The translations under genes were made by a program, and so were the position numbers. From an uncultured Oscillospiraceae bacterium (lineage in GTDB: Bacteria; Bacillota; Clostridia; Oscillospirales; Acutalibacteraceae), in assembly GCA_900547105.1 (NCBI GenBank), contig URFL01000003.1, forward strand, positions 1 through 64,000: DNA of 64,000 nucleotides, given 5' to 3'. The first letter of the stretch is position 1, and the number at the start of each line of letters is the position of its first letter. Under the pieces are notes generated by a model that was given only the letters and a program-made list of their open reading frames with translations, ran no database searches and was not told the DNA's origin. Of the stretch, positions 6,546-61,486 are shown one piece after another.

Positions 6546-6581
6546 CAAAAACACCCGCACACCGAAGGTGTACGGGTGTTT
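6546..6581. terminator. bidirectional hairpin terminating the tRNA-Thr transcript
   Basis: aaaa-acacccgcacacc-gaag-gtgtacgggtgt-ttt, with an A-run and T-run on the two sides. Confidence 0.7.
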
Positions 6582-12053: not shown

Positions 12054-13466
12054 TTAGCCGATGATCTCCAAAATCATCTGCTCGGCGGTTTTGGCGTCGG
12101 CGGAACCGCGGGTGGCTTTCATCACACCGCCCACCAGCGCTTTCAGCGCTTTTTCCTTGCCGCCGCGATAGTCCGCGACCGCATTCGGGTTGCCCGCCAC
12201 GACCTCTTCGCAGATCGCTTTCAGTGCGGAATCGTCTACGCCCGCCATATCCTCTTCGCTCAGCAGCTCGCTGACGCGTTTGCCGGTATCCATCATCTTT
12301 TCCAGCGTGGATTTGGCAAGATTCATCTTCAGCTTGCCGCTATCCAGCAGCGCCACCAGCTCGTTGAGGTGTGCCGCCGGCAGCGGCACATTCCCGGTTT
12401 CCTTGTCCGCTTCGGTTTCGATACGGCGGAAAATCTGGCCGATGATGAAGTTGGATACTGTGCGGGGCGACACGCCTTGCGCCGCCTCGTCGAAATATTC
12501 CGCGATCTTGCGGTATTTCACCAGCATCTGCGCATCCTTTTCGGGGATGCCCCACTCGCCGGTGTACCGTGCCATACGCGCATCCGGCAGCTCGGGCAGC
12601 TCGGCGCGCAGCGCCTCGATCTCCTCGTCCGAAGTAGCGATGGTCACCAGATCGGGGTCCTGGAAATAGCGATAATCGTGCGCGTCCTCTTTGGTGCGCA
12701 TGCTTTCGGTCATACCGGATTCCTCGTCATACCGGCGGGTTTCCTGCACCACCGCTTCGCCGCTTTCGATCAGATCGATCTGACGGTCAAATTCGTACGC
12801 CACCGCTTGGGCGATATGAGCGAACGAGTTCATGTTTTTGATCTCGGTGCGGGTGCCGAACTTGTCGGAGCCGACCGGCCGCACCGAAATGTTGACATCG
12901 CTGCGCATGGAACCTTCCTGCATCCGGCAATCCGACACCCCAATGGTGCGCATCAACAGCTGCAGTTTTTCCATGTACTCGCGAATTTCGTCCACGCTGC
13001 GGAAATCCGGCTCGGACACGATCTCGATCAGCGGCACGCCGCCGCGGTTGTAGTCCACAAAGGTGTCGCCGTGGCTGTGCACCAGCTTGCCCGCATCCTC
13101 TTCGATATGGATGTGATTCAGCCGGATGCGGCGGCCGGAAGACAGCTCCACATAGCCTTCCACACACAGCGGGTGGTACAGCTCGGAGATCTGATACGCC
13201 TTCGCCAGATCGGGATACACATAGTTTTTGCGATCCATCTTGGCGATATGGCTGATGCGGCAGTTGGTGACCAACCCCGCTTTGATGGCATAACGCACCA
13301 CCTCATGATTCAGCTTGGGCAGTGTGCCGGGCAAGCCGATGCAGATGGGGCAGCAGTTGGTGTTGGGTTCGCCGCCGAATTTGGTGGTGCAGCCGCAGAA
13401 AATCTTGGTTTTGGTGGACAGCTCGATATGGGTTTCCAAACCGGCAACCAGTTCGTACTCTCTCAC
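12054..13466 (-). CDS. gatB: Asp-tRNA(Asn)/Glu-tRNA(Gln) amidotransferase subunit B
   Basis: [50 protein letters not shown] is the GatB N-terminus. Confidence 0.97.
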   Translation of the reverse strand: MREYELVAGLETHIELSTKTKIFCGCTTKFGGEPNTNCCPICIGLPGTLPKLNHEVVRYAIKAGLVTNCRISHIAKMDRKNYVYPDLAKAYQISELYHPLCVEGYVELSSGRRIRLNHIHIEEDAGKLVHSHGDTFVDYNRGGVPLIEIVSEPDFRSVDEIREYMEKLQLLMRTIGVSDCRMQEGSMRSDVNISVRPVGSDKFGTRTEIKNMNSFAHIAQAVAYEFDRQIDLIESGEAVVQETRRYDEESGMTESMRTKEDAHDYRYFQDPDLVTIATSDEEIEALRAELPELPDARMARYTGEWGIPEKDAQMLVKYRKIAEYFDEAAQGVSPRTVSNFIIGQIFRRIETEADKETGNVPLPAAHLNELVALLDSGKLKMNLAKSTLEKMMDTGKRVSELLSEEDMAGVDDSALKAICEEVVAGNPNAVADYRGGKEKALKALVGGVMKATRGSADAKTAEQMILEIIG

Positions 13467-28871: not shown

Positions 28872-30296
28872 TTATTCTTCCGCCGGTTGTTCCGACGCCT
28901 CTTCCTGCGGAGCAGGAGCTTCCGGTGCCGCAGGGGTATCCAGCTCTTTTCCGAGGAACCCGGGGATCTGCATCCCCGCCATTTTGAAGGTTTCGTTCAA
29001 AGGCGGAATGGATTTCATCATGCCGGACAGGAAGTTCGCGGTGGTGGAACCACCCTCCTTGCCGCCCATCGAATCCCAAACCGTCACCTTGTCGATCTTC
29101 AGATTCTTGATCGCTTCCACCTGAATCTTGACCAGTTCCTCGATCTTGTCCGCCAGCATCAGCTGCACCGCTGCGTTGGCGTCGCCGCCCGCTGCCTCCA
29201 CGATTTTCTGGAAGCCTTCGGCCTGTTTCGCCAAAATCTCCTGAGCACCGCGCGCCTGCGCCTCCATGGTGGCGTAGATCGCGTCCGCTTCACCGCGCGC
29301 TTTGCGGCGGGTCTGCTCGGCTTCGGCTTCCGCCTCCAACTCCACCCGCTCTTTTTCGATGCGCGCTTTCACGATAACATCCGCCTGCTGGGTCGCCGCC
29401 TCACGCTCGGCACGCGCCTGCTCGGCCTGTTGCTGTGCAGCATATGCTTCTTCCAACGCCCGCGCTTCGGCGATCCGCTCGGCTGCGGTCGCCCGGCGCA
29501 TAGCCTCGGCCTCCGCCTCGCGACGAGTCGCATCCGACTGCGCCACGGCGGCTTTGGATTCGTTTTCACCGGCGATGGCGGCGGCGTTCGCCTCCGCCAC
29601 CTGAATACGCTGATCCTTGACCGCCTGCGATTCACCGATCGAACCGTCGCGGTTCTTTTCGGCAACCGACTTTTTCGCATCGTTGATCGCCTTGGCGGCC
29701 GCCTCTTTACCCAGCGCCTCGATATACCCCGACTCGTCGGTGATATCGGTCACATTCACGTTGATCAGCCGCAAACCGATCTTTTTCAGCTCGGTCTCCA
29801 CATTGTGGTACACCGCTTCCACAAACTTGTCGCGGTCGGTGTTGATCTCTTCAATATCCATGGTCGCGATGACCAGACGCAGCTGACCGAAGATAATGTC
29901 CTTCGCCAGCTCCTGCACCTCGACCATTTTCAGCCCCAACAGCCGCTCGGCGGCGTTCTGCATAGTACCCGGCTCGGTGGAGATACCCACCGTAAACCGC
30001 GAGGGCACATCCACGCGGATGTTCTGGTGCGACAGCGCGTTGGTCAGATCCACGTTGATGGAAATGGGGGTCAGATCCAGATAATCAAACGATTGGATCA
30101 CCGGCCAGATGAACGCCGCGCCACCGTGGATACACCGTGCCGAGCGCGCCGACCCGTCTTTGTTGGTGCCGACTTTACCGTAGATGACCATGATTTTGTC
30201 GGACGGGCACCGGCGGTACCGCGACAGCAGCACCAGCAGCAGCGAAAACAGCAGCACCCCGACCACGATCAGCAAGATAACAACATTGCTAGGCAT
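28872..30296 (-). CDS. flotillin-like SPFH/band-7 protein (FloT/YuaG family)
   Basis: N-terminal TM anchor, SPFH domain, then a long Ala/Glu-rich coiled-coil (…EAEAEAMRRATAAERIAEARALEEAYAAQQQAEQARAEREAATQQ…). Confidence 0.88.
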   Translation of the reverse strand: MPSNVVILLIVVGVLLFSLLLVLLSRYRRCPSDKIMVIYGKVGTNKDGSARSARCIHGGAAFIWPVIQSFDYLDLTPISINVDLTNALSHQNIRVDVPSRFTVGISTEPGTMQNAAERLLGLKMVEVQELAKDIIFGQLRLVIATMDIEEINTDRDKFVEAVYHNVETELKKIGLRLINVNVTDITDESGYIEALGKEAAAKAINDAKKSVAEKNRDGSIGESQAVKDQRIQVAEANAAAIAGENESKAAVAQSDATRREAEAEAMRRATAAERIAEARALEEAYAAQQQAEQARAEREAATQQADVIVKARIEKERVELEAEAEAEQTRRKARGEADAIYATMEAQARGAQEILAKQAEGFQKIVEAAGGDANAAVQLMLADKIEELVKIQVEAIKNLKIDKVTVWDSMGGKEGGSTTANFLSGMMKSIPPLNETFKMAGMQIPGFLGKELDTPAAPEAPAPQEEASEQPAEE

Positions 30297-30321: not shown

Positions 30322-31026
30322 TTATTCTTCGTCCAACGGACGAACCACTAACACATTTTGATTCATCACACCGGTCACCTTGACCATTTCATCGGTGCGA
30401 AGATTGCGTTTGGCGGTGGTCACCGCGCTCAGCTCCACATACCGCTCCTGCAGCGTCATGGTGACTTTGCCGGAACGCTTGCCCTGTGCCGGAATGGGAA
30501 TATACACTTGGGCGGTTTTGCCCACCGCGCCGCGCAGATCCAGATTGCCCTGATCCTGCAGCGACAGGCTCCATTTGATAAACCACGCGGTCAGCAGCAG
30601 CGCCGCGGCGCCGCCCGCCACCGCAATGGCTATGACCGCGGCAGTCGCCAGCGTGGTTTCCGCCAGCGCAATGCCCAACCAGCCGCCAACCGCGAAAAAC
30701 GCCACCAGCCCGCGCACGGTGAACAGTCGCAGCCCCGCCGCGTGGTGCGCCGGATCGTGGGTATCGTGATCGTCTGCGTCATGGTCGTCATGGTCAAAGG
30801 CGTGTTCCGCGCCGTGATCGAACTCGTGCGCGTCGTGATCCCAGCCGTGGTCGCCCAATCCGCTGTGGTCGTCCGCCATTTCTCCGTGATCTGCGTCGTG
30901 ACCGCCCAGCCCGATCAGCAGCAGCACCGTTTGCAGCACCAGCATCACCGTTGCGGGAATCGCCACGACCGCGAAACTCTGCTGCAGCATATTCAGCGCA
31001 TTCCACCAATCATAAAACCATTGCAT
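30322..31026 (-). CDS. NfeD-like membrane protein (YuaF-like flotillin partner) with a His/Asp-rich insert
   Basis: TM segments plus a C-terminal OB-fold-like region (…VGKTAQVYIPIPAQGKRSGKVTMTL…VVRPL). Contains an approximately 60-aa insert, GHDADHGEMADDHSGLGDHGWDHDAHEFDHGAEHAFDHDDHDADDHDTHDPAHH. Confidence 0.75.
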   Translation of the reverse strand: MQWFYDWWNALNMLQQSFAVVAIPATVMLVLQTVLLLIGLGGHDADHGEMADDHSGLGDHGWDHDAHEFDHGAEHAFDHDDHDADDHDTHDPAHHAAGLRLFTVRGLVAFFAVGGWLGIALAETTLATAAVIAIAVAGGAAALLLTAWFIKWSLSLQDQGNLDLRGAVGKTAQVYIPIPAQGKRSGKVTMTLQERYVELSAVTTAKRNLRTDEMVKVTGVMNQNVLVVRPLDEE

Positions 31027-34405: not shown

Positions 34406-34858
34406 CTAGATCGCCGCTTGCGTTTTCTTGTCAAAAATCCGATTTACAGATTTCACCTTATTATCCAGTTGGCGAACGATTTCGTTGCCCTCTTCTGCAA
34501 TCTCTCTGGCATCCTCTTCGCAGTACGGGTTCTTCATCAGGCTATGGATATATGCATCTCGGCGGTCCTTCCATGTCCAAATCTCATCAATAAATGAGAG
34601 CGGAATTCTTTTACGAATTTGCTTATCCGTAAAAGGTGCGCTGTCATGTATTTTATTCAGCTTGATGCTAAGTTTCAATGGGTGACCTTGTTTATTTGTT
34701 AACTTTATGGTCCCCTCATGACGCAAAACCGATTCAGTTCTGTCTTCGATCATGGCGTATTCGATAAAAACTGCCTCAAGCCAAAAGCCATGCCTCAGTG
34801 CTTTGGAAAGCTTCACCTTGTATTGGGCGTATGTATATTGCTTGTCCGTGTTGTTCAT
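34406..34858 (-). CDS. hypothetical protein (150 aa), distal gene of the low-GC island
   Basis: ORF with RBS ggagggg before MNNTDKQYTYAQYKVKLSKALRHGFWLEAVFIEYAMIEDRTE…. No domain recognised. Codon usage is AT-richer than the flanking genes. Confidence 0.6.
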   Translation of the reverse strand: MNNTDKQYTYAQYKVKLSKALRHGFWLEAVFIEYAMIEDRTESVLRHEGTIKLTNKQGHPLKLSIKLNKIHDSAPFTDKQIRKRIPLSFIDEIWTWKDRRDAYIHSLMKNPYCEEDAREIAEEGNEIVRQLDNKVKSVNRIFDKKTQAAI

Positions 34859-34941
34859 ACCGTTCCCCTCCGGTTTGTTTTCTCCTTTTGGCACCTCACC
34901 GGAAAGTATATATTCTCACATGTGCTCACCTTTTGTGCCGA

Positions 34942-37341
34942 TCACGGCTTTTTAAAATAAAGAAAGTCACTATATTCCGTTGTGTCAGTATTTCCGTTAG
35001 TGTGAGTATACACTTTTATCGTACAATTACCGTTGTTATCGTATGTATATTCCGTTTCACATATAGCGTCGTTAGAATACACACACACTTCTTTCACACG
35101 GTTTCCGTTATCATCATATTTGTACTCCGTCGCGTTCATAAAGCCGCTATACCCTGTACAAACTTCTTTTATACAGCTTCCTTTATTATCGTATGTGTAT
35201 CTCGTCGTACTTATGCCGCCACCAGCACCTGTAAATACTGCCTCCACACAATTTGCATTGTCATCATATTTGTATTCCGTTGTGCTTGAATAGTCTCTGG
35301 AATTCGCATACACTTCCTTTACACAATTTCCATTGCTATCGTATTCGTATTCCGTTGTGCTTGTATCTCCACTATACCCTGTACAGACTTCTTTCACGCA
35401 GTTTCCAGTATTATCATATTCGTACTCCGTTGTGCTTATATCACCATCAAAGGCCGTGTCAACTTTTTTCACACAATTTCCATTGTTATCGTATTTGTAT
35501 TCTGTCGTACTTATTCTACCATTATATTCCGTGTGTACTTCACATTGCGGCTTCGAAAGAATCGAGCGGTAATAGTTCACAGCATCCTTATAGCCGCCCG
35601 CTGCATAAAATTGAGCACGGGCTTCTCCGTACTTTCCGGCGTTGTATAACTCCATACCCGCATTATACTTGTAACTTGGAATAACGACTGTTGTCAGCAC
35701 AACAACAAGGGTAATGCAAGCAGCAATAATCGGCATCCCGATAGCAAAGAATTTTCTGCGCGCCTTTTTGGCTTTTTCCTCTTCTATTTTAATCTGCTCA
35801 ATCTTCTTTTGGCAGGCATACACCTGCTCATCCGCATCTTTCCAGCCAGAAATGGATTGAAACAACTCGATGGCTTCCTCATAAGCGCTGCTATCCTCGC
35901 CCACCATCTGTGACTTGGCCGAACCATATAGGGCATCTTTTCGACAGCACTCTGCTTTGTCGAAGCACTCCTCCGCAAGCTTCTTCGAATCTTTAAATTC
36001 TCCAACACTCTGAAAAGCCTGCGCAGCCGCTTTATACGCCTCCTCCGTATCGGCGGAATTCATGGCGTTGACCGCCCCGTTATATACATTGGTCAGTCGC
36101 TCATTTTCGTTACGTTGATTGATATACGCAATATAGTCGTTCATTGTTTTCGTCAAGGTGGGGTCGGCAAACCGCAACACCTTATGAAAATTGCTGCTTT
36201 TATCAAAGGGGTGTTTACAGTTCTTTAATTGCCCTTGCTCGCGCACACGCAGCTCCGCCATCAGTTTGCCCAAATACGCGCGCGCATTTTCCGGATCCTG
36301 ATCCAGCACTTTTTCACAATAGGCATCCGCCTCCTGCCAATCACCGTCTTCCAAAAACATAAAAACCCGTTTCAAAAGCGGTTCCACGCTTACATTACCG
36401 CTATCCATCACCACGGTTTCCTGAACCGTTTTCTTGGGCATATCCGCCGAAACAATTTTCTTAATTCCCCGAATCAAATCCTGCATAAACCCGAGTTTGG
36501 ACATATCTTGCGCCTGTAGATGAGAAAATTCTTCGGGCAAATCGTAAGGATCCATATCCTTGTAAGCGGGAATCAGCGTTTTTTTGCCGCCGCTGTTCTT
36601 CACCAATGCCAAATACCGGCTCCACTCGTTTTTCACCCAGACAGCATTAAAATACTCCGGCTTTGTACCCAGTACTACCATAACCTTTGCACTGTTAAGA
36701 GCAGCAAATATATACGGCTCATACGCCGTGCCCAGTTTGTCCTCCAAAGTGATGCGAGCAAAGAACACCTTGAAGCCTTCCTGCGTCAGCTGGTGGTACA
36801 TATCGTTGGCAAGCACACTGTCTTGGGTACGACGACCGCTAGCATCCGTTTCCTTGTAACAGATAAATATGTCAAAAGGTTGTTCTTTTTGAGAGATAGC
36901 CAAAATACCCTTTTGAATCTCGTTGATGGTTTGTGCTTCCGACTCGTAAATCTCTCGCTGAACAGCATCGGCATATCGTAGGGCAGATTTATAGTTATCA
37001 TCATCAAAGACCGATGTAAACTGCGCTCGATTTACCGTAGGTATACGCTTATGCGAACCCGGATCCTCCACATATTCAATACCATAGCGGCAAAGCACCA
37101 GAGACCAATACGCCTCGGCATCCGTCTTGTCCTCGGTCAGGATTTGCTCATATATCCCCATGGCTTTGTCATATTCATTGCTGCGCCGAAAATGATTGGC
37201 TCGATCATAAAGATTTGCCCGCCGATCATCATCCAATTTGGGCAAGGTTTGCTTGGTGCCGCAGCTGTCGCAAACAGCTACGGTGTCACCGGGGTGAAGT
37301 TCCAGTGTCCCTCCGCACATTTTGCATTTGAATACTGTCAT
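34942..37341 (-). CDS. multidomain TIR-domain protein: N-terminal zinc ribbon, TIR domain, TPR-like helical region, single TM helix, C-terminal YD-like tandem repeats (799 aa)
   Basis: Zinc ribbon MTVFKCKMCGGTLELHPGDTVAVCDSCGTKQTLP. TIR-like block FDIFICYKETDASGRRTQDSVLANDMYHQLTQEGFKVFFARITLEDKLGTAYEPYIFAALNSAKVMVVLGTKPEYFNAVWVKNEWSRYLAL. TPR-like region (…AYCEKVLDQDPENARAYLGKLMAELR…). TM helix FFAIGMPIIAACITLVVVLTTVVIP. About 7.5 repeats of around 25 aa (ISTTEYEYDNTGNCVKEVCTGYSGD), matching the YxYDxxGN YD-repeat core. RBS aaggag. Confidence 0.8.
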   Translation of the reverse strand: MTVFKCKMCGGTLELHPGDTVAVCDSCGTKQTLPKLDDDRRANLYDRANHFRRSNEYDKAMGIYEQILTEDKTDAEAYWSLVLCRYGIEYVEDPGSHKRIPTVNRAQFTSVFDDDNYKSALRYADAVQREIYESEAQTINEIQKGILAISQKEQPFDIFICYKETDASGRRTQDSVLANDMYHQLTQEGFKVFFARITLEDKLGTAYEPYIFAALNSAKVMVVLGTKPEYFNAVWVKNEWSRYLALVKNSGGKKTLIPAYKDMDPYDLPEEFSHLQAQDMSKLGFMQDLIRGIKKIVSADMPKKTVQETVVMDSGNVSVEPLLKRVFMFLEDGDWQEADAYCEKVLDQDPENARAYLGKLMAELRVREQGQLKNCKHPFDKSSNFHKVLRFADPTLTKTMNDYIAYINQRNENERLTNVYNGAVNAMNSADTEEAYKAAAQAFQSVGEFKDSKKLAEECFDKAECCRKDALYGSAKSQMVGEDSSAYEEAIELFQSISGWKDADEQVYACQKKIEQIKIEEEKAKKARRKFFAIGMPIIAACITLVVVLTTVVIPSYKYNAGMELYNAGKYGEARAQFYAAGGYKDAVNYYRSILSKPQCEVHTEYNGRISTTEYKYDNNGNCVKKVDTAFDGDISTTEYEYDNTGNCVKEVCTGYSGDTSTTEYEYDSNGNCVKEVYANSRDYSSTTEYKYDDNANCVEAVFTGAGGGISTTRYTYDNKGSCIKEVCTGYSGFMNATEYKYDDNGNRVKEVCVYSNDAICETEYTYDNNGNCTIKVYTHTNGNTDTTEYSDFLYFKKP
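34955..35545. repeat. 75-bp tandem DNA repeats encoding the YD-like repeats of the TIR protein
   Basis: Visible near-periodic repetition (…acacaatttccattgNtatcgtatttgtattcNgtcgtacttat…). Explains the spurious + strand ORFs at 35033-35684. Confidence 0.8.
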
Positions 37342-37417: not shown

Positions 37418-38086
37418 CTATTTCAGCATTTTGCATTTTTTATTTCGCTCATCTAAAAGCGAATGAAGTTCAGCGACAACCTCCGTTTTATCGACAGCAG
37501 CTTTCAATTCGATCATCTTTTCTGTGATCCGGCTTTCTAAACCAGCGAGTTGCTCATGGCTCACAGGATCGGAGAACCGAATTTTCTCCGCAAGCTGCCC
37601 AAGCGCCGATTTTATGGCTGTATCCGTTTCTGTATCAGCCAACAGTTCAACCTCCGTCTGCAACTGCTTGATATAGAAAGTCTTTTTCTGTATCTTTGTA
37701 TCCACTCGTTCAATTTCGCTGCGTCCGGCATCCGAAGCAATCATACAAACCGCAGATACCCCGGTTATCACTGCACAAGCCACAACGGCGCTCCAAGCCG
37801 GCAGCGCCGAAACGAACAGAAACACTGCAAGCGCAACAACCTGAATCACCAGATAGACCGCGCCAATATAAACGACCGGAAAGCCAAGGAACTTGCTTTT
37901 CATTGTTTCTTCGCGTTCAAGCGCTATTTTCCAAATAAACAGCTGTGCTGCAAAGGCTACCACGGTGAATCCGTAGGCAATCCAAAACGCCGCGGTTTTA
38001 GCCGTGGGCACCACAAACGCAACAACGCTTATCAATACAAACAGAATGCCGAGAACGGCATATCCCTTTGCACTATTCTTTTTCAT
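37418..38086 (-). CDS. membrane protein (4 TM) with C-terminal cytoplasmic coiled-coil; partner of the SPFH/zinc-ribbon protein
   Basis: Start MKKNSAKGYAVLGILFVLISVVAFVV at 38086 (RBS agggagg), separated by 2 nt from the stop of the upstream SPFH gene. Coiled-coil tail (…QLQTEVELLADTETDTAIKSALGQLAEKIRF…). Confidence 0.7.
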   Translation of the reverse strand: MKKNSAKGYAVLGILFVLISVVAFVVPTAKTAAFWIAYGFTVVAFAAQLFIWKIALEREETMKSKFLGFPVVYIGAVYLVIQVVALAVFLFVSALPAWSAVVACAVITGVSAVCMIASDAGRSEIERVDTKIQKKTFYIKQLQTEVELLADTETDTAIKSALGQLAEKIRFSDPVSHEQLAGLESRITEKMIELKAAVDKTEVVAELHSLLDERNKKCKMLK

Positions 38087-38088
38087 TG

Positions 38089-39258
38089 TCAGCCCTCCCT
38101 CTTCGCGCCGCACTGCGGGCAAAACTTGCCGGACTTGATAAACTTAAAGCCACACTGCGGGCAAGTATCCGCGGATGTCTGCCGGGCACCGCATTCATCA
38201 CAAAACGCCGCGCCCGGAGCTAACTCGGCACCACACTGATCGCAAAAGCGATTGACCGCTTGCGGTTGTGTGGTCATTCCCGCAAATGCGTCAGAAACCG
38301 CACCGCCGACCACTCCACCAACTGTGCCGCCAACGCCAGCCATCATTCCCAGTCCGATACCCATATTGGAAAACTGCCCTGCGCCCTCATTTTTCGCAGC
38401 ATCCTGTGCCACATCGAATCCTCGCTCCTGCTGGTAGGTATAGCCTTCCTGCATTCGCTTGGTGGCTTGTGCCTGAGAATCGATAACAACCTTTTGCGCC
38501 TCGGTCTGTGCGTGGATCACATCGGTCTGCTGTTTCAGCTTTGCCTCGGCTATATCGGCATACTGTCGGAAATGCAGCTCCTTGAATTTTTCATACTGCG
38601 GGTCACCGTCCGGCTTGACCACCGTAGTAACATAGAATCGTTTGAGTTGTACACCGTAATCAAGAAAATCGGGAATCAATCGCTGCTGAATGTCCTCTGA
38701 AAATGTTTCAAGACTTTCATCAATCTCAAAAATGTTGATAGCATTAGCACGCATTGCCTGAGCGATATAGGTTTTCACCTTTGTCATCAGGATACTGCGA
38801 AAATAGGCGGTCAGCCGCTCACGAGTCAGAACATGCTCTGTGCCCACCAATTTAATTAACAATTTACGGGAATCGTCCACGCAAAGCGACATCTCACCGC
38901 TCGCGCCGATAGAAAGCGGGAAATGATATGTAGGTTCTACATACTGCACCTTGCTGTCAGTTCCCCAGCGAATCGCCATCTGTTCGGTCTTATTGATAAA
39001 ATAGACCTCGCAATGAAATGCGCTCACACCACCGGTTGGAATATTTATCAAGCGTCGAAAAATTGGAATGTTTTCCGTTTCTAGCGTATACCGTCCCGGT
39101 CCAAACAGGTCAAGCGCCTGCCCATTTAGGAAAAGAATAGCCTCCTGCGATTCGTGGACAATCAACTGAGATGATGTGTTAAAGTCCTCGCAGGGATGTT
39201 TCCATACAAAAGTGCTGTTATCCCCTTCGTATTTGATAACAGAGGCAATATTTGCCAT
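38089..39258 (-). CDS. SPFH (band-7)-domain protein with C-terminal double zinc ribbon (COG4260 / B. subtilis YdjI-like, 'virion-core-protein-like')
   Basis: MANIASVIKYEGDNSTFVWKHPCEDFNTSSQLIVHESQEAILFLNGQALDLFGPGRYTLETENIP is the characteristic N-terminus of this family. Gly-rich linker, then CDQCGAEL…CDECGA…CPQCGFKF…CPQCGA. RBS gaggggg. Confidence 0.85.
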   Translation of the reverse strand: MANIASVIKYEGDNSTFVWKHPCEDFNTSSQLIVHESQEAILFLNGQALDLFGPGRYTLETENIPIFRRLINIPTGGVSAFHCEVYFINKTEQMAIRWGTDSKVQYVEPTYHFPLSIGASGEMSLCVDDSRKLLIKLVGTEHVLTRERLTAYFRSILMTKVKTYIAQAMRANAINIFEIDESLETFSEDIQQRLIPDFLDYGVQLKRFYVTTVVKPDGDPQYEKFKELHFRQYADIAEAKLKQQTDVIHAQTEAQKVVIDSQAQATKRMQEGYTYQQERGFDVAQDAAKNEGAGQFSNMGIGLGMMAGVGGTVGGVVGGAVSDAFAGMTTQPQAVNRFCDQCGAELAPGAAFCDECGARQTSADTCPQCGFKFIKSGKFCPQCGAKREG

Positions 39259-39391
39259 ATCGCAACCCCCTCAATTTGTTATTGTGTACTTTTTCAAACT
39301 CCTATGTAAATTTTAACTTGTTGACATTATACTACTAAAAGGCTGAAATCTCAACTGTTTTCGGGAAAATAGTTTCAACATACAGAACACC

Positions 39392-39428
39392 CCAAAAAGG
39401 CAGGCTCCGGTGGGAGCCTGCCTTTTGC
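39392..39428 (-). terminator. rho-independent terminator of tsaD (also insulates the island promoter)
   Basis: aaaaaggcaggctccggtgggagcctgcctttt. Confidence 0.8.
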
Positions 39429-53357: not shown

Positions 53358-54404
53358 ATGAACACGCGCATGGTATCGCTTTTCACCGTGGCTGCACTGT
53401 GCCTGTCGCTGTGCGCCTGTGGCGGGCAACCTGGAACAGATGTGGAGCTTGGCGCCAGCCGCATGACCGAAACGGCGACGCTCCCTGTTTCCAAAACGGC
53501 AACCCTTTCCACAAACAATGCGGGAGCGACCACCGCCCCCTCCAAAAAGCCGGCACACCACACCACCCAACCCGTTGTCTCCACCCGCGCTATGGAAAGG
53601 TTACACCGCGGCAACAGCACGTGGCAAGAGGTTCCTATCGAAGACATGAAGTACATATCCTTATGGTGTTTTTGGACGTTTGATTTGCGAAAGGTCATTA
53701 CCTCCGCCGACTATGTTTTTAGCGGAACGATCCTCAGCCGCAAAGAATATGAAGTGTCTTTGCCGGATAAAAAAGGAGAATCTAACGGACCATATAGCCG
53801 GTCGATTCTCGAAGTGGAAATACACCATACATATCACGGAAAGCCACCGGTAAAAGGGAACATTATTCGTGTGTGTTACACCCATTCCGTATCGGAACAG
53901 ATCGGCAGCGCGCTGTCGATTGACGATAACGGAGAATATGTTTTTGTCACCTATGCGCTGAACGACAAGTACGCCAAAGAAATGAAGAAAAAATTTCCCG
54001 ACGGCTATGCAGAAGAGGAGTTGTATGCGGATGTCGCTTTCTCCACTCCTTTCTATGATCTGTTCGCTATCGAAGATGGAAAAGTGATTTCTTATGCCGG
54101 ATATTTTGACTGGGATAAAAAGGTGATGAAAAAAGCAACCTATCCCGTAAGATCGAACAAGATTGAACACGGGCGCAGCGGCGGTCCTTATATTGCGTTG
54201 TCCAAAAAAGACTTTGATACGGCGTTTGCCAACCTGTTCAAAAATCCGGAAACTTTGCCCACTGCCAGCACATGGGCGCACAACGACACCACCACGACCA
54301 CAACTACCACCCGCCAGACGAGCGCTGCCACAAAAGCGGGGCTGCCCACCGTGAACACCGACCCCACCATCGTGTGGTCAGACCCGGAGGACGGAGAGTC
54401 ATGA
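53358..54404 (+). CDS. hypothetical lipoprotein (348 aa)
   Basis: MNTRMVSLFTVAALCLSLCA-C lipobox. Promoter TTGAAA-17-TATATT at about 53295-53323, RBS aggagggg. C-terminal Thr-rich linker (TTTTTTTTRQT). Confidence 0.7.
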   Translation: MNTRMVSLFTVAALCLSLCACGGQPGTDVELGASRMTETATLPVSKTATLSTNNAGATTAPSKKPAHHTTQPVVSTRAMERLHRGNSTWQEVPIEDMKYISLWCFWTFDLRKVITSADYVFSGTILSRKEYEVSLPDKKGESNGPYSRSILEVEIHHTYHGKPPVKGNIIRVCYTHSVSEQIGSALSIDDNGEYVFVTYALNDKYAKEMKKKFPDGYAEEELYADVAFSTPFYDLFAIEDGKVISYAGYFDWDKKVMKKATYPVRSNKIEHGRSGGPYIALSKKDFDTAFANLFKNPETLPTASTWAHNDTTTTTTTTRQTSAATKAGLPTVNTDPTIVWSDPEDGES

Positions 54405-55249
54405 TGAAAAAGGAATGGCAAAGTGGGGGCTTGTGTCTGCTCATACTCGGCGGTTTGCTGGCGGGCTGTCTTAGCGGGTGCCGGTCAACCGAACCTCTTC
54501 CGAATAAGGTAACGACAACGAGTGTTCATACTGTGAGCACCACCGCAACAGCCCCCGTCGATACGATGACGAAAGCACCATTCAAAACCGAACCGGATCC
54601 AACAGGCTATGTAGATTTAGTTGACTCCGAAGACTGGCCTTGCCGCGAGTTTAATTCCGTGGAGGGTTTTATCCATTGGATTGAAAACCCTAACTTCAAA
54701 ATGGAAAAAAGTCCGCTTGAGCCGGAAAAAGATGAACATGGATACGACGTATATAAAAGAAGTTATTTTGATGCCCTGTATCCGGACTATCAACAGATGT
54801 TTGCGGTAGACCGGTTTTACATGCTGCCGGATGTGCCGTCTGATTGGGAGTTAACAGATATACAGATAAGAAGTCATAATACCGACTTTTATTATCTGGA
54901 TAATCAAAAAAACGAATATTATCTATCCTATAATTATTCCGAATCCTCCCATAATCTCAATAGTGTTGAAAGTTCAGAGTTTTTTGCTTTTAAAAAAATA
55001 TTAAACGATCAAGAATATTATGTTATAGATTTTGATCTACAAGCAGTAGCCCAAAAGAAGGGCAGTTTTATTTTTACTCTTGTAAATGGTTATCTCTGCG
55101 AATTTGCTATGCAAACATATAATCCGGACGAAAAAGATTCCGCTACAGAAGGATATGAACGGGTTGTTTACAGTGAGAATACGGATTTAACGGATGTTGT
55201 CAGCAAGATGAAATTTAAGCGGATCGATTTACCCCCACTGAAACAGTAG
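54401..55249 (+). CDS. hypothetical lipoprotein (282 aa), AT-richer than its surroundings
   Basis: MMKKEWQSGGLCLLILGGLLAGCLSGC lipobox. ATGA overlap with the upstream lipoprotein gene. Confidence 0.65.
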   Translation: MMKKEWQSGGLCLLILGGLLAGCLSGCRSTEPLPNKVTTTSVHTVSTTATAPVDTMTKAPFKTEPDPTGYVDLVDSEDWPCREFNSVEGFIHWIENPNFKMEKSPLEPEKDEHGYDVYKRSYFDALYPDYQQMFAVDRFYMLPDVPSDWELTDIQIRSHNTDFYYLDNQKNEYYLSYNYSESSHNLNSVESSEFFAFKKILNDQEYYVIDFDLQAVAQKKGSFIFTLVNGYLCEFAMQTYNPDEKDSATEGYERVVYSENTDLTDVVSKMKFKRIDLPPLKQ

Positions 55250-55264
55250 AAGCAAAAAGCCAGC

Positions 55265-55323
55265 ACAAAAGCCGACGGCGTTTTGGTCGCGAATAGCTTT
55301 GGCTGGCTTTTTCCTTTGGCGGC
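55265..55323 (+). terminator. probable terminator (compound hairpin)
   Basis: aaaagccagc…gctggcttttt with inner stems. Confidence 0.5.
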
Positions 55324-55375
55324 GGCATCGATCCGCCCGGCAGCGGGTCGTAACAATTTTTTTACAAATATTTCC

Positions 55376-55404
55376 TTGCGCTTTGGGCGGAAAAGGAGTA
55401 TAGT
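55376..55404 (+). promoter_or_regulatory. sigma-A promoter of htpG (TTGCGC-17-TATAGT)
   Basis: Positioned so the transcription start falls at the CIRCE element. Confidence 0.55.
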
Positions 55405-55408
55405 AGCG

Positions 55409-55435
55409 TTAGCACTCGAAGCGAGCGAGTGCTAA
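55409..55435 (+). promoter_or_regulatory. CIRCE operator upstream of htpG
   Basis: TTAGCACTC-gaagcgagc-GAGTGCTAA is a perfect CIRCE consensus. Confidence 0.93.
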
Positions 55436-55460
55436 AACATCGTAAAGAGGGAAAATCGTC

Positions 55461-57341
55461 ATGAGAACCAAACAATTCAAAGCCGAATCCAAGCGGTTGC
55501 TGGATCTGATGATCCATTCTATCTATACCCATAAAGAAATCTTTCTGCGCGAGCTGATCTCCAACGCCAGCGACGCGATGGACAAGCTGTACTACCGCTC
55601 GCTGAAAGAGCATTTGCAGGATGTGGATCGCGAAGATTTTGCCATCGACATTGCGGTGGACAAAGAGCACCGCACCCTGACCATTTGGGATACCGGCATC
55701 GGCATGACCGAAGAGGAGCTGGAAAACAACCTCGGCGTGATCGCCAAGAGCGGCTCGTTTGCTTTCAAAAATGAGCAGGAGGAGAAAACCGACGATGTGG
55801 ACATCATCGGTCAGTTTGGCGTGGGCTTTTATTCCGCGTTCATGGTGAGCGATCTGGTCACAGTCGTCACCCGCGCCTACGGCAGCGACCAGGCGTATCG
55901 CTGGGAATCCAAAGGGGTCGAGGGCTACACGGTGGAGCCGTGCGAAAAAGACAGCGTCGGCACCCAGATCATTTTGCATATCAAAGAGAACACCGAAGAC
56001 GAAAACTACGACGAATTTTTGGACAGCTACCGTTTGCAGGGGCTGATCAAAAAATATTCCGACTACATCCGCTACCCCATCCGCATGGATGTGGAATCCC
56101 GCCGTCCGGTCGAGGGCAAAGAGGGCGAGTACGAAACCGTCACCGAGACCAAAACCATCAACAGCATGGTACCGATCTGGCGCAAAAACAAAAGCGAGAT
56201 CCAGCCGGAGGAATACAACGCCTTTTACAAGGATAAATTCATGGATTACGAGGATCCGGCGCGGGTCATCCACAGCCGCACCGAGGGCGCGGCCACCTAT
56301 CAGGCGCTGTTGTTCATCCCGTCCCACGCGCCGTACAACTACTACACCCGCGAATACGAAAAGGGCTTGCAGCTGTACGCCAGCGGCGTGCTGATCATGG
56401 ACAAATGTGCCGATCTGCTGCCCGACCATTACAGCTTTGTCAAAGGTTTGGTCGATTCGCAGGATCTGTCGCTGAACATCTCGCGCGAGATGCTGCAGCA
56501 CGATCGCCAGCTGAAGCTGATCGCCGCGCGACTGGAGAAAAAGATCCACAGCGAGCTGCTCTCCATGCTGCAAAACGAGCGCGAAACCTATGAAACCTTC
56601 TTCAAAAACTTCGGCTTGCAGTTGAAATACGGCGTATACAGCGATTTCGGAATGCACAAGGATGAGCTGCAGGATCTGCTGCTGTTCTATTCGTCCCACG
56701 AAAAGAAGCTGACCACGCTGCAGGAATACATCGACCGTATGCCGGAAGGACAGCCCTGCATCTACTACGCGTGCGGCGAAACGCCGGACAAGATCGAGCG
56801 GATGCCACAAACCGAGGCGGTACGCGACAAGGGCTACGAGATCTTGTATCTGACCGACGATGTGGACGAATTCGCGCTGAAATCGCTGCACACCTTTGCG
56901 GACAAGGAGTTCAAATCCGTGTCCGGCGGTGATTTGGGCTTTGAGCCGGAAAAGGCGGAAGAATCCACCGAAAACAAAGACCTGTTCGCCTTTATGGCGG
57001 AGGCGCTGTCCGGCAAGGTGAAAGCGGTGCGCGGGTCGCAGCGGCTGAAAACCCACCCGGTTTGTCTGACCGCCGAGGGCGAAGTGTCGCTGGAGATGGA
57101 AAAGGTGCTGGATGCGATGCCGGGTGACCACGCGATCAAAGCCCAGCGGGTGCTGGAGATCAACGAAGCGCACCCCATCTTCCAAAAGCTGACCGCGCTG
57201 TACCAAAACGACAAAGACGAGCTGAAAGAATACAGCGAGCTGCTGTACGATCAGGCGGCGCTGATGGAGGGGCTGTCGATCGACGATCCGGTGGCGTTTG
57301 CCGAAAAAGTGTGCAAGCTGATGGCGCAGGATAACGCATGA
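55461..57341 (+). CDS. htpG: molecular chaperone HtpG (Hsp90)
   Basis: …[15 protein letters not shown]… (GHKL N-terminal motif). 626 aa. Confidence 0.96.
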
Positions 57342-57946: not shown

Positions 57947-60040
57947 ATGAGCATCATCGCCCGCGACAACCGTATTTTTGTGTTGGAAACCGCCCACACC
58001 CATTATGTGGTGGGTATCGACGCCGACGGACGCGACCGACATATCTACTGGGGCGCGCCCTGTGACCCCGCCGACTACGACATTCCGCCGGTGGTGTGCG
58101 AAAACCCCAATCATCCGGCGCTGGACGAAATGCAGCAGGAATGTACCGTGTTCGGCTCCACCATGTACCGCGACAGTGTGCTGAAAGCGACCTTTGCCGA
58201 CGGCTGCCGCGAAATTTTGCCGATCTTTGACAGCGCCGAGGTAGGCGACGACCGGTTGGCGCTGCGGTTTTGCGATGAGCACTATGGCTTGTCGTATACC
58301 CTCCACTACCGGCTGTTTCCGGACAGCGACATCATCGAAAAATATGTGTCGGTGCAAAACACCGGCACCGAACCGCTGGTGTTCGACCGCCTGTTCAGCG
58401 GCGAGCTGACCTTTCCCTCGCCGGAGGTGTATATCATCCAAAACACCAACGGCGGCTGGGGCGGCGAATATCGCCCCACCCAAACGCCGCTGTCCGGCGG
58501 CACGCTGGTGTTTGAAAGCCGCCGGGGCATTTCCGGTCACAACCAGTCGCCCTCGGTCATTGCGCATCACCACGCGACCGAACAGGCGGGCGAGGTCTTT
58601 TTCGCCGTGTTGGCGTACAGCGGCAGCTTCAAGGTGAGTGTCAACCGCGATGTGTACGGCGTGACCCGCGCGGTGCTGGGGATGAACGACCACGATTTTT
58701 CCTTTACGCTGCCCGCTGGGCAACCGTTTGACACCCCTCGCCTGTACGCGGGTCACACCCGCGGGCTGGGCGAAATGTCCCGCCAGCTCAACCGGCTGGC
58801 GCTGACCCATCTGCTGCCTCCGGCGTTTCGGGACAAGCCGCTGCCGGTGCTGTACAATTCGTGGGAAGCCACCGGCTTTGACGTATCCTCGCAGCAGCAG
58901 ATGCAGCTGGCGGACATCGCCGCCGATCTGGGGGTGGAGCTGTTTGTGATGGACGACGGCTGGTTTGGCGCACGCCACAACGACCACGCCGGGCTGGGCG
59001 ATTGGCAGGTCAACCGCAACAAATTCCCCCACGGCTTAAACGAGCTGATCGACCATGTGCATCGGCGCGGCATGGGGTTCGGCCTGTGGATCGAGCCGGA
59101 AATGGTGAACCCGGACAGCGACCTGTACCGCGCCCACCCCGATTGGGCGTATCACTACCCGACCCGACCCGCCAGCGAGCTGCGGAATCAGCTGGTGCTG
59201 AATCTGACCCGCCCCGATGTGCAGCAATATGTGTTTGAGGCGGTGGACGCGCTGTTGAGCGAGCAGGATATTCAGTATATCAAATGGGATATGAACCGCC
59301 CGTTTTCCGAAACCGGAGCGGAAAATCTGGACAACCCGCAAATGTTGTACTATCTGCACACCAAGGCGGTGTACGACATTGTGGACGCACTGAAAGCCAA
59401 GCATCCCGGCGTGATGTTTGAAAGCTGTGCATCCGGAGGCGGGCGCAGCGATTGGGGCGCGCTGTCGCATTTTGACCAGTGCTGGCCCAGCGACAACACC
59501 GATGCCATCGACCGCATGGCGATCCAGCACGATTTTTCGCTGCTGCACCCCACCAAGGTGATGCGCGCGTGGGTCACGGATATTGCGGGCCCCAACAAAC
59601 CGTGCAGTCTGGAATTCCGGTTCCACATCGCGATGCAAGGCGCGTTGGGGTTGGGCGGCAATCTGACCCGCTACACCCCTGCACAGCGGGAGCTTTGCCG
59701 CCAGCGTATCGCGCTGTACAAGCAAATACGCGAGGCGGTGCAGTTTGGCGATCTGTACCGACTGGCGGACGCGGACGAGGGCGAGGTGCTGATCAACGAG
59801 TATGTCAGCCGCGACAAAACGCAAGCGGTCTGCTTCGTGTCCAGTCGGGGAACGCGCTTTTTCAAAAAGCGGATGCCGATCCGGCTGGCGGGGCTGGTGC
59901 CCAACCGCCGCTACCGTCTGGAATTTCAAGGAACCACCTTGAAAAAAAGCGGCGCCTATTGGCAAAATGTCGGACTTTCGGTGTACATCCGCGGCGCAGA
60001 GTATAACGAGATCATCTTCCTCTGCCAAACCGCCCTCTGA
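57947..60040 (+). CDS. alpha-galactosidase, GH36 family
   Basis: …LELFVMDDGWFG… and …KWDMNR… GH36 motifs, length about 700 aa. RBS ggagggg. Confidence 0.9.
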   Translation: MSIIARDNRIFVLETAHTHYVVGIDADGRDRHIYWGAPCDPADYDIPPVVCENPNHPALDEMQQECTVFGSTMYRDSVLKATFADGCREILPIFDSAEVGDDRLALRFCDEHYGLSYTLHYRLFPDSDIIEKYVSVQNTGTEPLVFDRLFSGELTFPSPEVYIIQNTNGGWGGEYRPTQTPLSGGTLVFESRRGISGHNQSPSVIAHHHATEQAGEVFFAVLAYSGSFKVSVNRDVYGVTRAVLGMNDHDFSFTLPAGQPFDTPRLYAGHTRGLGEMSRQLNRLALTHLLPPAFRDKPLPVLYNSWEATGFDVSSQQQMQLADIAADLGVELFVMDDGWFGARHNDHAGLGDWQVNRNKFPHGLNELIDHVHRRGMGFGLWIEPEMVNPDSDLYRAHPDWAYHYPTRPASELRNQLVLNLTRPDVQQYVFEAVDALLSEQDIQYIKWDMNRPFSETGAENLDNPQMLYYLHTKAVYDIVDALKAKHPGVMFESCASGGGRSDWGALSHFDQCWPSDNTDAIDRMAIQHDFSLLHPTKVMRAWVTDIAGPNKPCSLEFRFHIAMQGALGLGGNLTRYTPAQRELCRQRIALYKQIREAVQFGDLYRLADADEGEVLINEYVSRDKTQAVCFVSSRGTRFFKKRMPIRLAGLVPNRRYRLEFQGTTLKKSGAYWQNVGLSVYIRGAEYNEIIFLCQTAL

Positions 60041-60048
60041 TCGACAGG

Positions 60049-60089
60049 AAAACAGCCCGAGTCACCTCGCGAGGTGACTCGGGCTGTTT
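60049..60089. terminator. strong bidirectional hairpin
   Basis: aaacagcccgagtcacctcgcgaggtgactcgggctgttt is an 18-bp stem. Confidence 0.7.
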
Positions 60090-60127
60090 GGCGTATGTGT
60101 TTATTTTACAAATTCAAAATGTCTTTG

Positions 60128-60670
60128 TTATTTCCCGCTATCGGGGGACAGGGAGATGGGGTCTTTGTCGCGGGTCCAATAGTCGTGCCCTTTTTCCTTC
60201 GGCTGCCACAAGGTGGATTTTGTTCCCATCTCAAACGGGAAGATCAACAACAACGGCGTTTTATCTTCCATAGCCCACTGTATTAGTTCCTTAAAAATAG
60301 TAAAATATCCTCTACCACTGCGCGGAGCCACCCATGGTTGTGCCAGATTGTTGTTTTCCTCTCCGGGAATCACTTCCCATGGGATCGGCAAAGACAGGTT
60401 TTGGATATCGTAAACCGCCTCGGACAAGGAATGCTTTTGCAGCTCGAGCGGAATCTGATCCAGCTCCCGCTGAAGCTCTTGCAAATGTTCGTTTTCTACG
60501 ATGCCGTGATCGCACAAATCGCGCAGCAGCCGCGGGAACCGCTCCCCCCAATGCCCTACCCCTTCCAGATGATAGGACACCGTAGAAAAGAAGCAATAAA
60601 CCATATCGCCCCATCCGATCCTGCTAATAAACCCCGCGCGCCCCTTTTTTTGCACCATAAGATACACCAT
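60128..60670 (-). CDS. hypothetical protein, paralog 1 of a 180-aa family (immunity-protein-like)
   Basis: MVYLMVQKKGRAGFISRIGWGDMVYCFFSTVSYHLEGVGHWGERFPRLLRDLCDHGIVENEHLQELQRELDQIP…LLLIFPFEMGTKSTLWQPKEKGHDYWTRDKDPISLSPDSGK. About 75% identical to 61487..62038. The 5' and 3' DNA ends are near-identical between the two. Confidence 0.7.
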   Translation of the reverse strand: MVYLMVQKKGRAGFISRIGWGDMVYCFFSTVSYHLEGVGHWGERFPRLLRDLCDHGIVENEHLQELQRELDQIPLELQKHSLSEAVYDIQNLSLPIPWEVIPGEENNNLAQPWVAPRSGRGYFTIFKELIQWAMEDKTPLLLIFPFEMGTKSTLWQPKEKGHDYWTRDKDPISLSPDSGK

Positions 60671-60689
60671 AATGGTTCCTCCTAATCGA

Positions 60690-61415
60690 TCACATTTCGC
60701 GCGAATAAATATTGACGGTATCGCGATCCAAATCCGGCTTAAAACAGATCAGCAGGTTCACATCCTGTGGCTGAAGCAAATCGAAGTGGTCGTTAGGTTT
60801 CATGATTTCATAGCACTTTTTCGCAATCTCATCGCGGTTATCCAGCAGACGGCGATAGCCTCGCTCGGTATCCGCCACAATAGTGATCGATGGTTCGTAC
60901 CGCACCATAATGCGCCATATGCCGTCCATTCCAAACGATTGTTGAAAATAGGTGCGTATGGCGGGCATGGATATACTATAAAGCCGTGCCATAAAGGAAC
61001 TCACAAAATCATACATATACAAATCAACGGTTTCCAACGCGTCTCGCGAATAGTGAAATGCATCCAAAAACACTTGCGTGACATCCTCGGCAAATGCGTT
61101 CAGCGATTCACTTGCATGCCTGACCAATTTGTTTAACGGCAGATCGCTGCTATTTACAAGGGCGTTTAACTCCTTTGCAACGGCGCAAGTATTCCCTTCA
61201 AAGTCCACATACACCGATATAGCTGCTCGCCGGTTATATATGGAAAGGTCTGTAAAAACTGCATTCAGTCCATATTTCGTGCGTATTTCGGTGACAAAAT
61301 TACGCTCTTGCACCCCATAATACACCACGCCGGAATGAAATATTTCAGCAAACTTACTATATTGAGAATAGCGCCCATTAAACGCATTGGAATATTCTCG
61401 CATAGCCATTGCCAT
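60690..61415 (-). CDS. hypothetical protein (241 aa) between the two paralogs
   Basis: ORF MAMAMREYSNAFNGRYSQYSKFAEIFHSGVVYYGVQ…. No domain recognised. Confidence 0.55.
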   Translation of the reverse strand: MAMAMREYSNAFNGRYSQYSKFAEIFHSGVVYYGVQERNFVTEIRTKYGLNAVFTDLSIYNRRAAISVYVDFEGNTCAVAKELNALVNSSDLPLNKLVRHASESLNAFAEDVTQVFLDAFHYSRDALETVDLYMYDFVSSFMARLYSISMPAIRTYFQQSFGMDGIWRIMVRYEPSITIVADTERGYRRLLDNRDEIAKKCYEIMKPNDHFDLLQPQDVNLLICFKPDLDRDTVNIYSREM

Positions 61416-61486
61416 TCCTCCTGCTTATCCGTCAATGTTTCTTGCGGACGTTGTATGTTTTTTCACAACTCCAAAGCGTATTTTCG

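Follow-up and report, generated by a model that had tools for sequence, protein, structure and literature searches.

A membrane-anchored TIR protein with a predicted outer YD-repeat domain, encoded beside SPFH and four-helix membrane proteins in a gut bacterium of the Clostridia

What would a TIR domain respond to when the same polypeptide carries, beyond a single transmembrane (TM) helix, a tail of YD repeats predicted to lie outside the cell? This question is raised by a gene in the first 64,000 nucleotides of contig URFL01000003.1 (GenBank assembly GCA_900547105.1), which come from an uncultured Oscillospiraceae bacterium; this whole stretch is referred to here as the window. The gene (34942..37341, minus strand) is an open reading frame (ORF) of 799 amino acids (aa), with coordinates exactly as listed in the initial annotation, an earlier reading of the window made from its letters alone. 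We refer to its product as the TIR-TM-YD protein. On balance, we read it as an outside-in surface sensor with a predicted TIR NADase output, probably used for defence.

Domain layout and membrane topology

The protein begins with a cytoplasmic zinc ribbon (residues 1-35; 37237..37341, the minus strand applying to this and all other features of the gene), in which the cysteine pairs C6/C9 and C24/C27 form a CxxC-x14-CxxC motif (residues 6-27). The AlphaFold2 (AF2) model gives the ribbon four short strands, Pfam zinc-ribbon models match it weakly, and 144 of 150 family representatives retain the motif. The next segment (residues 38-152; 36886..37230) consists of TPR-like helices, a beta hairpin and a long helix, with a Pfam TPR_7/TPR_14 match at residues 43-79 and AF2 helices at 38-85 and 115-152. 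Then come the TIR domain (residues 156-300; 36442..36876), placed by Pfam and by sequence and profile matches to PDB structures, and a cytoplasmic stalk of TPR-like helical repeats (residues 319-527; 35761..36387), which AF2 models at a predicted local distance difference test score (pLDDT) above 90 and which has a Pfam TPR match at 322-365 and TPR matches in Foldseek. The stalk leads to the single TM helix (residues 531-555; 35677..35751), with a Kyte-Doolittle mean of 2.68 over a 19-residue window and also present in the AF2 model. On the predicted outer side there are a juxtamembrane helical hairpin (residues 556-592; 35566..35676), defined from the family consensus, lipoprotein homologues and AF2, and the YD-repeat beta sheet (residues 594-799; 34945..35562), about eight units of 25 aa ending in TEYSDFLYFKKP. 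An AAGGAG sequence of the ribosome-binding type stands ahead of the ATG.

The initial annotation had proposed a zinc ribbon at about residues 1-35, TPR-like helices at about 300-520 and a single hydrophobic helix at about 525-550, and all the domains that it listed were recovered. Its layout lacked the second TPR-like segment (38-152), which lies between the zinc ribbon and the TIR domain, and the hairpin at 556-592. It had also proposed an AlphaFold model as a check; the model contains the zinc ribbon, the stalk and the YD sheet, with low confidence over the TIR region.

A TIR fold had been suggested at about residues 150-260, a failure of profile-based detection there being named as what would speak against it. 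Detection succeeded: Pfam TIR_2 (PF13676) matches residues 158-282 above its curated cut-off (44.8 bits against 28; E=2.1e-11), and it also matches 48 of 48 diverse relatives. A phmmer search of solved structures returned the TLR15/TLR2 TIR structure 7ylf (E=1e-4). The W/E block quoted in the same context, AVWVKNEWSRYLAL, is real, with WVKNEW at residues 235-240 and its glutamate at residue 239 (codon 36625..36627). A profile of the TIR segment was built from 31 paralogues and then compared with solved structures. Invariant in the 31 paralogues are W235, V236, N238, E239 and W240, together with D157, F159 and K163 of the FDIFICYKE strand, R171, T172, D174 and S175 of R-T-x-D-S, and Y207, E208 and P209; a WVKNEW-type motif is present in 147 of 150 family representatives. 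The profile matched TLR15/TLR2 at 7.8e-5, Brucella TcpB at 0.05 and 0.27 and flax L6 at 0.058 and 0.42, the remaining weak matches being to unrelated proteins. In the profile alignments E239 pairs with the glutamates of L6 'WCLMEL' and TcpB 'WPAREL', which, with its invariance, makes it the candidate catalytic glutamate. Its position (W-x-x-x-E, at the start of helix alpha-C) is presumably that of the catalytic glutamate in TIR NADases.

The orientation of the protein in the membrane is indicated by the charges around the TM helix, with seven lysine or arginine residues on its N-terminal side and two on its C-terminal side. Of 98 relatives encoded in other genomes, 97 have the same excess, as do 135 of the 136 cluster representatives with a TM segment, and no case in either set is reversed. 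Note that the N-terminus of the window protein has no signal peptide; it is hydrophilic and consists of the zinc ribbon. The tail module appears to be an exported one because its free-standing homologues P0121, P0123 and P0129 are lipoproteins: each has a lipoprotein signal peptide, then the hairpin 'G-x-Y-x-x-A ... GDYKD' and YD repeats, and they end as the window protein does, with a C-terminal 'TEYSDYLVF'. In relatives, the slot after the TM helix is held by a DUF6273 lectin, BspA-type leucine-rich repeats (LRR), RCC1, Listeria-Bacteroides repeats or immunoglobulin (Ig)-like domains. LRR_5/BspA, RCC1, the Listeria-Bacteroides repeat (Flg_new) and Ig-like domains (Big_2) are typical surface modules. 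A single-pass N-in/C-out (type II) topology, with the TIR domain in the cytoplasm and the YD sheet outside, is well supported as a prediction. The receptor-like topology put forward in the initial annotation holds at that level, through the one TM helix, the positive-inside bias and the exported tail homologues; a TIR domain outside, or no TM helix at all, is what had been named as speaking against it, and neither was found.

The tail (the last 244 residues) has a period of 25 aa, with T(E/R)YxYD motifs at residues 613, 638, 663, 688, 713, 738 and 763 and degenerate copies at 604 and 788, and its DNA has a diverged 75-bp period (5.7 copies, 68% matches). Pfam RHS_repeat scores 53 bits on the tail alone, AF2 folds the tail into 16-17 antiparallel strands at pLDDT >90, and the best Foldseek matches are Rhs/YD shells (Tse5, RhsA, TcB/C and teneurin, E about 1e-8). 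These matches agree with the YD/RHS assignment made earlier, and no cytoplasmic repeat family appeared in its place. The repeats had further been described as Cys-containing 25-aa units; the 25-aa YD period stands and the cysteine as a family feature does not, the Cys of 'GNCVKEV' being L, V or I in most relatives. A search with the tail as sole query returns small RHS-repeat proteins of 300-420 aa, and its closest sequence relatives are small lipoproteins of this size from Clostridia. P0282 (774 aa), in the 90% cluster of the window protein, is identical to it except for the clean loss of one 25-aa YD unit. The number of YD repeats varies between near-identical strains, and it is therefore unstable. 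The hairpin motif, G-x-Y-x-x-A ... G/D-Y-K-D, is common to the TIR receptors and the free YD lipoproteins, and in relatives it attracts matches to several Pfam TPR models within the outer part.

Exchange and hypermutation of the outer domain

The window protein belongs to a large family. A word-indexed protein search at the 90% cluster level returned at least 8,000 family proteins (E<=0.001), and most of the 120 best matches are 69-73% identical to the query over its first 72-75% and then diverge. With residues 1-530 as query, an exhaustive HMMER search of 1.84 billion representatives of 50% identity clusters gave 10,286 matches at E<=1e-3, of which 4,560 reach E<=1e-30. Among the 150 best HMMER matches, identity in the cytoplasmic part is 48-80% and length varies from 577 to 3,073 aa; what follows the TM helix is largely the reason why they are split into separate 50% clusters.

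The outer parts were classified with Pfam in 94 sequences and, separately, in 48 diverse representatives. DUF6273 was found in 71/94 and 8/48, RCC1 in 8/94 and 2/48, LRR_5 of the BspA type in 2/94 and 11/48, and RHS (YD) in 2/94 and 1/48; LRR_8 (4/48), Flg_new (2/48) and Big_2 (1/48) were found among the diverse representatives and have no entry for the 94. LRR outer domains are thus present in 15 of the 48. The YD tail is a minority variant in three samples (2/94, 1/48 and 6/120). As judged from these comparisons, the cytoplasmic module is constant (50-75% identity) and the outer domain is exchanged by domain shuffling. The architecture had been called unusual. This is so relative to described proteins and not relative to sequence space, in which the family is large and only the YD tail is uncommon. 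A search for homologues of the same architecture and an examination of their gene neighbourhoods had also been suggested; it yielded thousands of relatives and, in most of the loci whose neighbourhood could be counted, SPFH and four-TM neighbours, to which we return below.

In a survey with one genome per species, 380 of 400 pattern matches in species genomes encode a relative, so that the family is present in at least 380 species genomes. All 80 loci that were fetched are from Clostridia (Oscillospiraceae, Acutalibacteraceae, Ruminococcus, Lachnospiraceae and Anaerovoracaceae), from human, ruminant and other guts, and none of the 80 encodes a protein more than 83% identical to that of the window. 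Carriage by phages or plasmids was considered and rejected: the INPHARED phage and PLSDB plasmid collections hold no family match, and only 2 matches were found in 2.9 million IMG/VR contigs. No published description of the family was found in the full-text literature, most subscription journals being outside its coverage. The family is apparently undescribed, and it would extend the range of TIR-based conflict systems.

DUF6273 is C-type-lectin-like, and its C-terminal end is the variable region in targets of diversity-generating retroelements (DGRs) among gut phage receptor-binding proteins (PMC10743442, PMC11792537, bioRxiv 10.1101/2024.10.15.618418). In four family loci (L011, L012, L032 and L052), a signature scan (GNQTSQ...YMDD) located a reverse transcriptase of the DGR type at 0.8-0.9 kb downstream from the TIR-TM-DUF6273 gene. 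In three of them (L011, L032 and L052), the receptor gene ends in a variable repeat, about 124 bp long, with a matching template repeat ahead of the reverse transcriptase, and the mismatches fall at template adenines in 18/20, 24/26 and 16/17 cases. The repeat pairs and reverse transcriptases are at 12312-12435 / 13026-13149 and 13343-14401 in L011, at 6520-6646 / 7213-7339 and 7529-8572 in L032, and at 12376-12498 / 13065-13187 and 13386-14456 in L052. L012 has the reverse transcriptase, but only a 23-bp repeat match. Moreover, two bAvd genes were present in the flank census of the family loci. By these signatures, part of the family is a real DGR target. This is a strong argument for the outer domain being a surface that recognises ligands and is under pressure to diversify. 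The receptor reading of the initial annotation is supported in this respect, a constant cytoplasmic module being joined to interchangeable binding domains of which some are hypermutated; the sensing and the TIR output are inferred.

The operon and its SPFH/four-TM core

The TIR gene is the third of four co-directional genes on the minus strand, which encode a YdjI-like SPFH protein, a membrane protein with four TM helices (4-TM protein), the TIR receptor and a small protein with an Rx4H motif; the intergenic gaps, in this order, are 2, 76 and 47 bp. The first gene (38089..39258) encodes a soluble protein of 389 aa with a C-terminal double zinc ribbon (Pfam Band_7_1, E=6e-35; DZR, E=1e-9) and without a TM segment (maximum Kyte-Doolittle mean 1.5 over 19 residues). 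A GAGGGGG sequence of the ribosome-binding type precedes its start codon, and a promoter-like site, TTGAGA-17-TATAAT (39326..39354, minus strand; 11/12 matches in a consensus scan only), lies upstream of the gene and is probably the operon promoter. The second gene (37418..38086; its mechanical ORF extends back to a TTG at 38122) encodes 222 aa with four TM helices and a cytoplasmic C-terminal helical bundle, modelled by AF2 at a mean pLDDT of 63 and of about 85 in the bundle. It has no Pfam family, and none of its 2,569 homologues carries a Pfam domain. The fourth gene (34406..34894) encodes 162 aa, or 150 aa from an ATG at 34858, with invariant W...Rx4H and E..YA..E.R motifs. Its product is possibly HEPN-like; the 162-aa protein had no Pfam match, about 1% probability in hhalign against slot proteins with sub-threshold HEPN matches, and no PDB match.

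The organization of the operon was tallied over 59 non-redundant loci for which 2.5 kb or more of sequence was available upstream. The TIR gene is accompanied by the SPFH gene in 50 of them, by the 4-TM gene in 49 and by both in 49, nearly always in the order SPFH, 4-TM, TIR. Two or three TIR paralogues, mostly in tandem, are present in 20 of 81 loci. In 29 of the 59 loci no gene separates the 4-TM gene from the TIR gene, and in 27 a small variable gene lies in the slot between them. Slot genes above the Pfam threshold encode a RiboL-PSP-HEPN protein (53.8 bits), a stand-alone TIR (73 bits), DUF2971 and DUF4365, and several others have sub-threshold matches to the pEK499-type HEPN family. In L011 and L016 this slot is occupied by a homologue of the fourth window gene, and in L062, whose upstream sequence is cut off, such a homologue immediately precedes the TIR gene. 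The variety of slot genes can be seen at L025 9384-9995, L030 9552-9977, L014 1104-1901, L042 8418-9086, L026 8400-8885 and L003 5169-5804. An assignment of the slot genes of about 400 aa (L015, L060) as SIR2-like was dropped, their only Pfam match being a weak one to AbiH (E=0.02).

The operon block looks like a horizontally acquired insertion, since its GC content (0.40-0.50) is below that of the flanking PEPCK (0.57) and tsaD (0.64) genes. In relatives, integrase or resolvase genes often adjoin the block.

The SPFH/4-TM pair also occurs with other partners. A search from the 4-TM homologues placed the closest pairs, at about 70% identity, on small mobile elements that also encode a resolvase or integrase, a Mob relaxase and TnpV, where the pair is then followed by a non-TIR protein of 347-470 aa. 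These partners all begin with a zinc ribbon and a TPR-like hairpin like those of the TIR protein, and in BLASTP they match its residues 1-79 (E=9e-10 for L091 and 1e-5 for L092). One of them is followed in turn by a small Rx4H protein with a sub-threshold match to HEPN_MAE_28990. The genes after these pairs can be seen at L091 6896-7939, L092 6923-8335, L094 6913-7977 and L095 5489-5950. From this we infer that the zinc-ribbon/TPR N-terminus couples a variable third component to the constant SPFH/4-TM pair.

Readings of the receptor and the surroundings of its operon

If the protein is an outside-in sensor, its outer domain would bind an external ligand that reaches the membrane surface, most plausibly a phage tail or receptor-binding component, a competitor- or envelope-derived molecule being also possible. 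Ligand binding would cluster the receptors, possibly on the SPFH/4-TM scaffold, to which the N-terminal zinc-ribbon/TPR module would dock. The clustered TIR domains would then self-associate and cleave NAD+, and either NAD+ depletion or a nucleotide signal would arrest the cell before infection or early in it. We hold the observation itself and the topology with high confidence. With moderate confidence we favour an anti-phage or other conflict role, because the recognition domain is exchanged and hypermutated, paralogues occur in arrays, the accessory genes encode HEPN, TIR and DUF4365 proteins, and the module is mobile and strain-variable.

Several results weigh against this picture. A domain of about 250 aa at the membrane of a Gram-positive cell is covered by the wall and can meet only a restricted range of molecules, and the YD tail of the window protein is short. 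The window copy has no DGR, there being no reverse-transcriptase signature in the 64 kb, and the DGR argument therefore does not apply to this copy itself. The glutamate is present at the same position in a non-enzymatic Toll-like receptor (TLR) TIR, which is the best PDB match, and for this reason we regard Glu239 as necessary but not sufficient for enzyme activity. AF2 gives low confidence over the TIR region (pLDDT 39-77 at residues 158-300); the secondary structure there starts beta-alpha-beta-alpha-beta, at the same pLDDT, and the poor confidence probably arises because the usable homologues are about 70% identical in this part. The PADLOC and NCBIfam models recognise no known defence system at the locus. 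Finally, the flanking genes are mostly housekeeping ones, about 5% of 149 flanking ORFs matching PADLOC, a figure that includes several generic matches and has no background control.

The closest published concept is that of the DGR-diversified putative antigen sensors in conflict systems of multicellular bacteria, some of which have TIR effectors (Dore et al. 2024, PMC10907252; Kaur et al. 2020, PMC7159879). As in the present family, a hypervariable C-type-lectin sensor is joined to effectors that include TIR, the DGR lies beside its target gene, an immune-sensor reading was proposed, and some of the targets are predicted to have a periplasmic lectin domain (PMC10907252, PMC7159879). However, those sensors belong to STAND-NTPase or MoxR/vWA ternary systems of cyanobacteria, Thiohalocapsa and similar organisms, whereas the family described here, from gut and rumen Clostridia, has no NTPase and combines a fixed scaffold (zinc ribbon, TPR, TIR, TPR, TM) with SPFH and 4-TM partners and with many outer domains that are not lectins; this scaffold, the TM design and the SPFH partners are all missing from the published systems. 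The window copy differs further by its YD tail and its lack of a DGR.

TLRs offer another comparison. Like them, the family connects an outer binding domain through one TM helix to a TIR domain within the cell, with LRR in 15/48 relatives, and TLR15/TLR2 is the best sequence match of the TIR domain among solved structures. Unlike them, it is type II, with the TIR domain N-terminal and with additional zinc-ribbon and TPR segments, and the window protein carries YD repeats and not LRR; its output is probably enzymatic rather than the recruitment of adaptors. The likeness to a TLR in reverse order, which is a literal one in the relatives that bear LRR, is a convergence of design, not membership or common descent of the whole architecture. 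A possible but more doubtful extension of the sensor reading is that the family is a bacterial counterpart of Toll-like or antigen receptors, in which a TIR NADase, one TM helix, an exchangeable and sometimes DGR-hypermutated outer domain and an SPFH/4-TM scaffold would sense a phage or other aggressor at or before genome entry. As far as we know, the TIR-based immune systems that have been described in bacteria to date detect infection from within the cell. If true, the extension would mean that bacteria have outside-in immune sensing, with the logic of the animal TLRs reached independently, and, where a DGR acts on the outer domain, a self-diversifying repertoire of receptors.

The main rival to the sensor reading is that the operon encodes an envelope-stress module, in which the SPFH, 4-TM and zinc-ribbon proteins would be a sensor of membrane damage like YdjG/H/I with a TIR output, and the outer domain would only anchor or position the complex in the wall. 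We consider this unlikely, though its parts list does parallel that of the PspA-YdjGHI (SamGHI) system of B. subtilis: there, the membrane proteins YdjG and YdjH bring YdjI, a soluble SPFH protein of the Band_7_1 type with a zinc finger at its C-terminus, into a membrane complex that senses stress (PMC8581546; bioRxiv 10.64898/2026.02.06.704340), and a ydjG cloning primer encodes MIISYKCPNC, a zinc-ribbon-type N-terminus (PMC8581546). The window SPFH protein likewise has Band_7_1 and DZR and no TM helix, beside a polytopic and a zinc-ribbon membrane protein, and the SPFH/4-TM core also occurs with non-TIR partners. This precedent is an analogy. The gene order differs, the zinc-ribbon partner in the window carries a TIR and an outer binding domain, and no pspA or other PspA-family gene is present in the gene tables of the loci inspected (L001-L008 and L091-L095). 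Moreover, a pure anchor would need neither the exchange of lectin, LRR, RCC1, Ig and YD domains nor DGR hypermutation, and the module lies on mobile elements and varies between strains. A role as a surface adhesin or colonisation factor is less probable again. Here the outer domain would bind host glycans, mucus or bacteria, and the TIR and TPR parts would be a non-enzymatic scaffold or anchor. LRR_5/BspA, Big_2 and Flg_new, which occur in the family, are typical adhesin modules, and DGR targets in gut microbes and phages have been described as adhesion or receptor-binding proteins (PMC11792537, PMC10743442). But a short stalk keeps the outer domain right at the membrane, below the wall, and neither a wall-spanning region nor a sortase signal was seen in the window protein; the roughly 530 cytoplasmic residues are extremely conserved, including the invariant WxxNEW, and the SPFH and 4-TM genes are conserved members of the operon, which often includes HEPN or TIR accessory genes as well.

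The TIR domain could also act as in Thoeris, by making a nucleotide messenger that activates a separate effector (the small Rx4H or the 4-TM protein) instead of depleting NAD+, which we judge about as improbable as an adhesin role, or slightly more so. Thoeris also has a bacterial TIR protein proposed as sensor, and the window TIR is weakly similar to domains of the ThsB/ThcB4 type. Thoeris systems can have multiple ThsB genes, several TIR paralogues per locus are likewise present here, and small genes of the Rx4H/HEPN type recur beside the receptor. On the other side, the models remain far below threshold (PADLOC ThsB, E=1.3e-3 and 15.9 bits; NCBIfam ThcB4, 27.8 bits against a cut-off of 220), and the window TIR protein spans the membrane and has a domain outside. 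No nucleotide-sensing domain (SLOG, Macro, SAVED or CARF) was recognised in any operon member, and neither the three neighbours of the TIR gene nor the genes tabulated for L001-L008 include an effector of the ThsA type (SIR2/SLOG or Macro-TM). Profile tests did not bear out a HEPN identity for the 162-aa protein, and the small gene is absent from about half of the loci. As for a secreted or delivered polymorphic toxin of the Rhs/YD type, we give it next to no credence. The tail does share the YD motif and the beta-hairpin sheet with Rhs/YD proteins, with a Pfam RHS_repeat match and Foldseek matches to Rhs effectors of the type VI secretion system, Tc toxins (BC) and teneurins. The motif and size tests contradict this reading: the window protein has no signal peptide, PAAR, LXG or WXG motif, no PxxxxDPxGL core and no C-terminal toxin, and its open sheet of about 200 aa and 16-17 strands is too small for a closed shell and holds neither plug nor cargo. 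The protein ends with its repeats, and its enzyme-type domain lies towards the N-terminus, in the cytoplasm. The initial annotation had argued on similar grounds that this is not a secreted polymorphic toxin, and the absence of trafficking motifs, Rhs core and C-terminal toxin, with a sheet too small for a shell, bears it out.

If the sensor reading is correct, it would give the poorly understood YdjI-type SPFH proteins a testable role, that of scaffolds on which receptors assemble. Clostridia of the human and ruminant gut carry the family in abundance, and it would be of relevance to gut ecology if it governs phage or interbacterial interactions.

Some minor features were observed around the operon. 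A GC-rich hairpin with a 14-bp stem and runs of A and T (39395-39426) lies between tsaD and the promoter-like site and is probably a terminator at the boundary of the island. Other patches of low GC content, at 54001-56000 (0.47) and 60001-62000 (0.48) compared with about 0.58 elsewhere, may be further insertions. About 4 kb from the island, the window contains a second SPFH gene, of the flotillin type (Band_7, 474 aa; 28872-30296, minus strand), and directly upstream of it is a gene for a membrane protein of 234 aa (30322-31026, minus strand).

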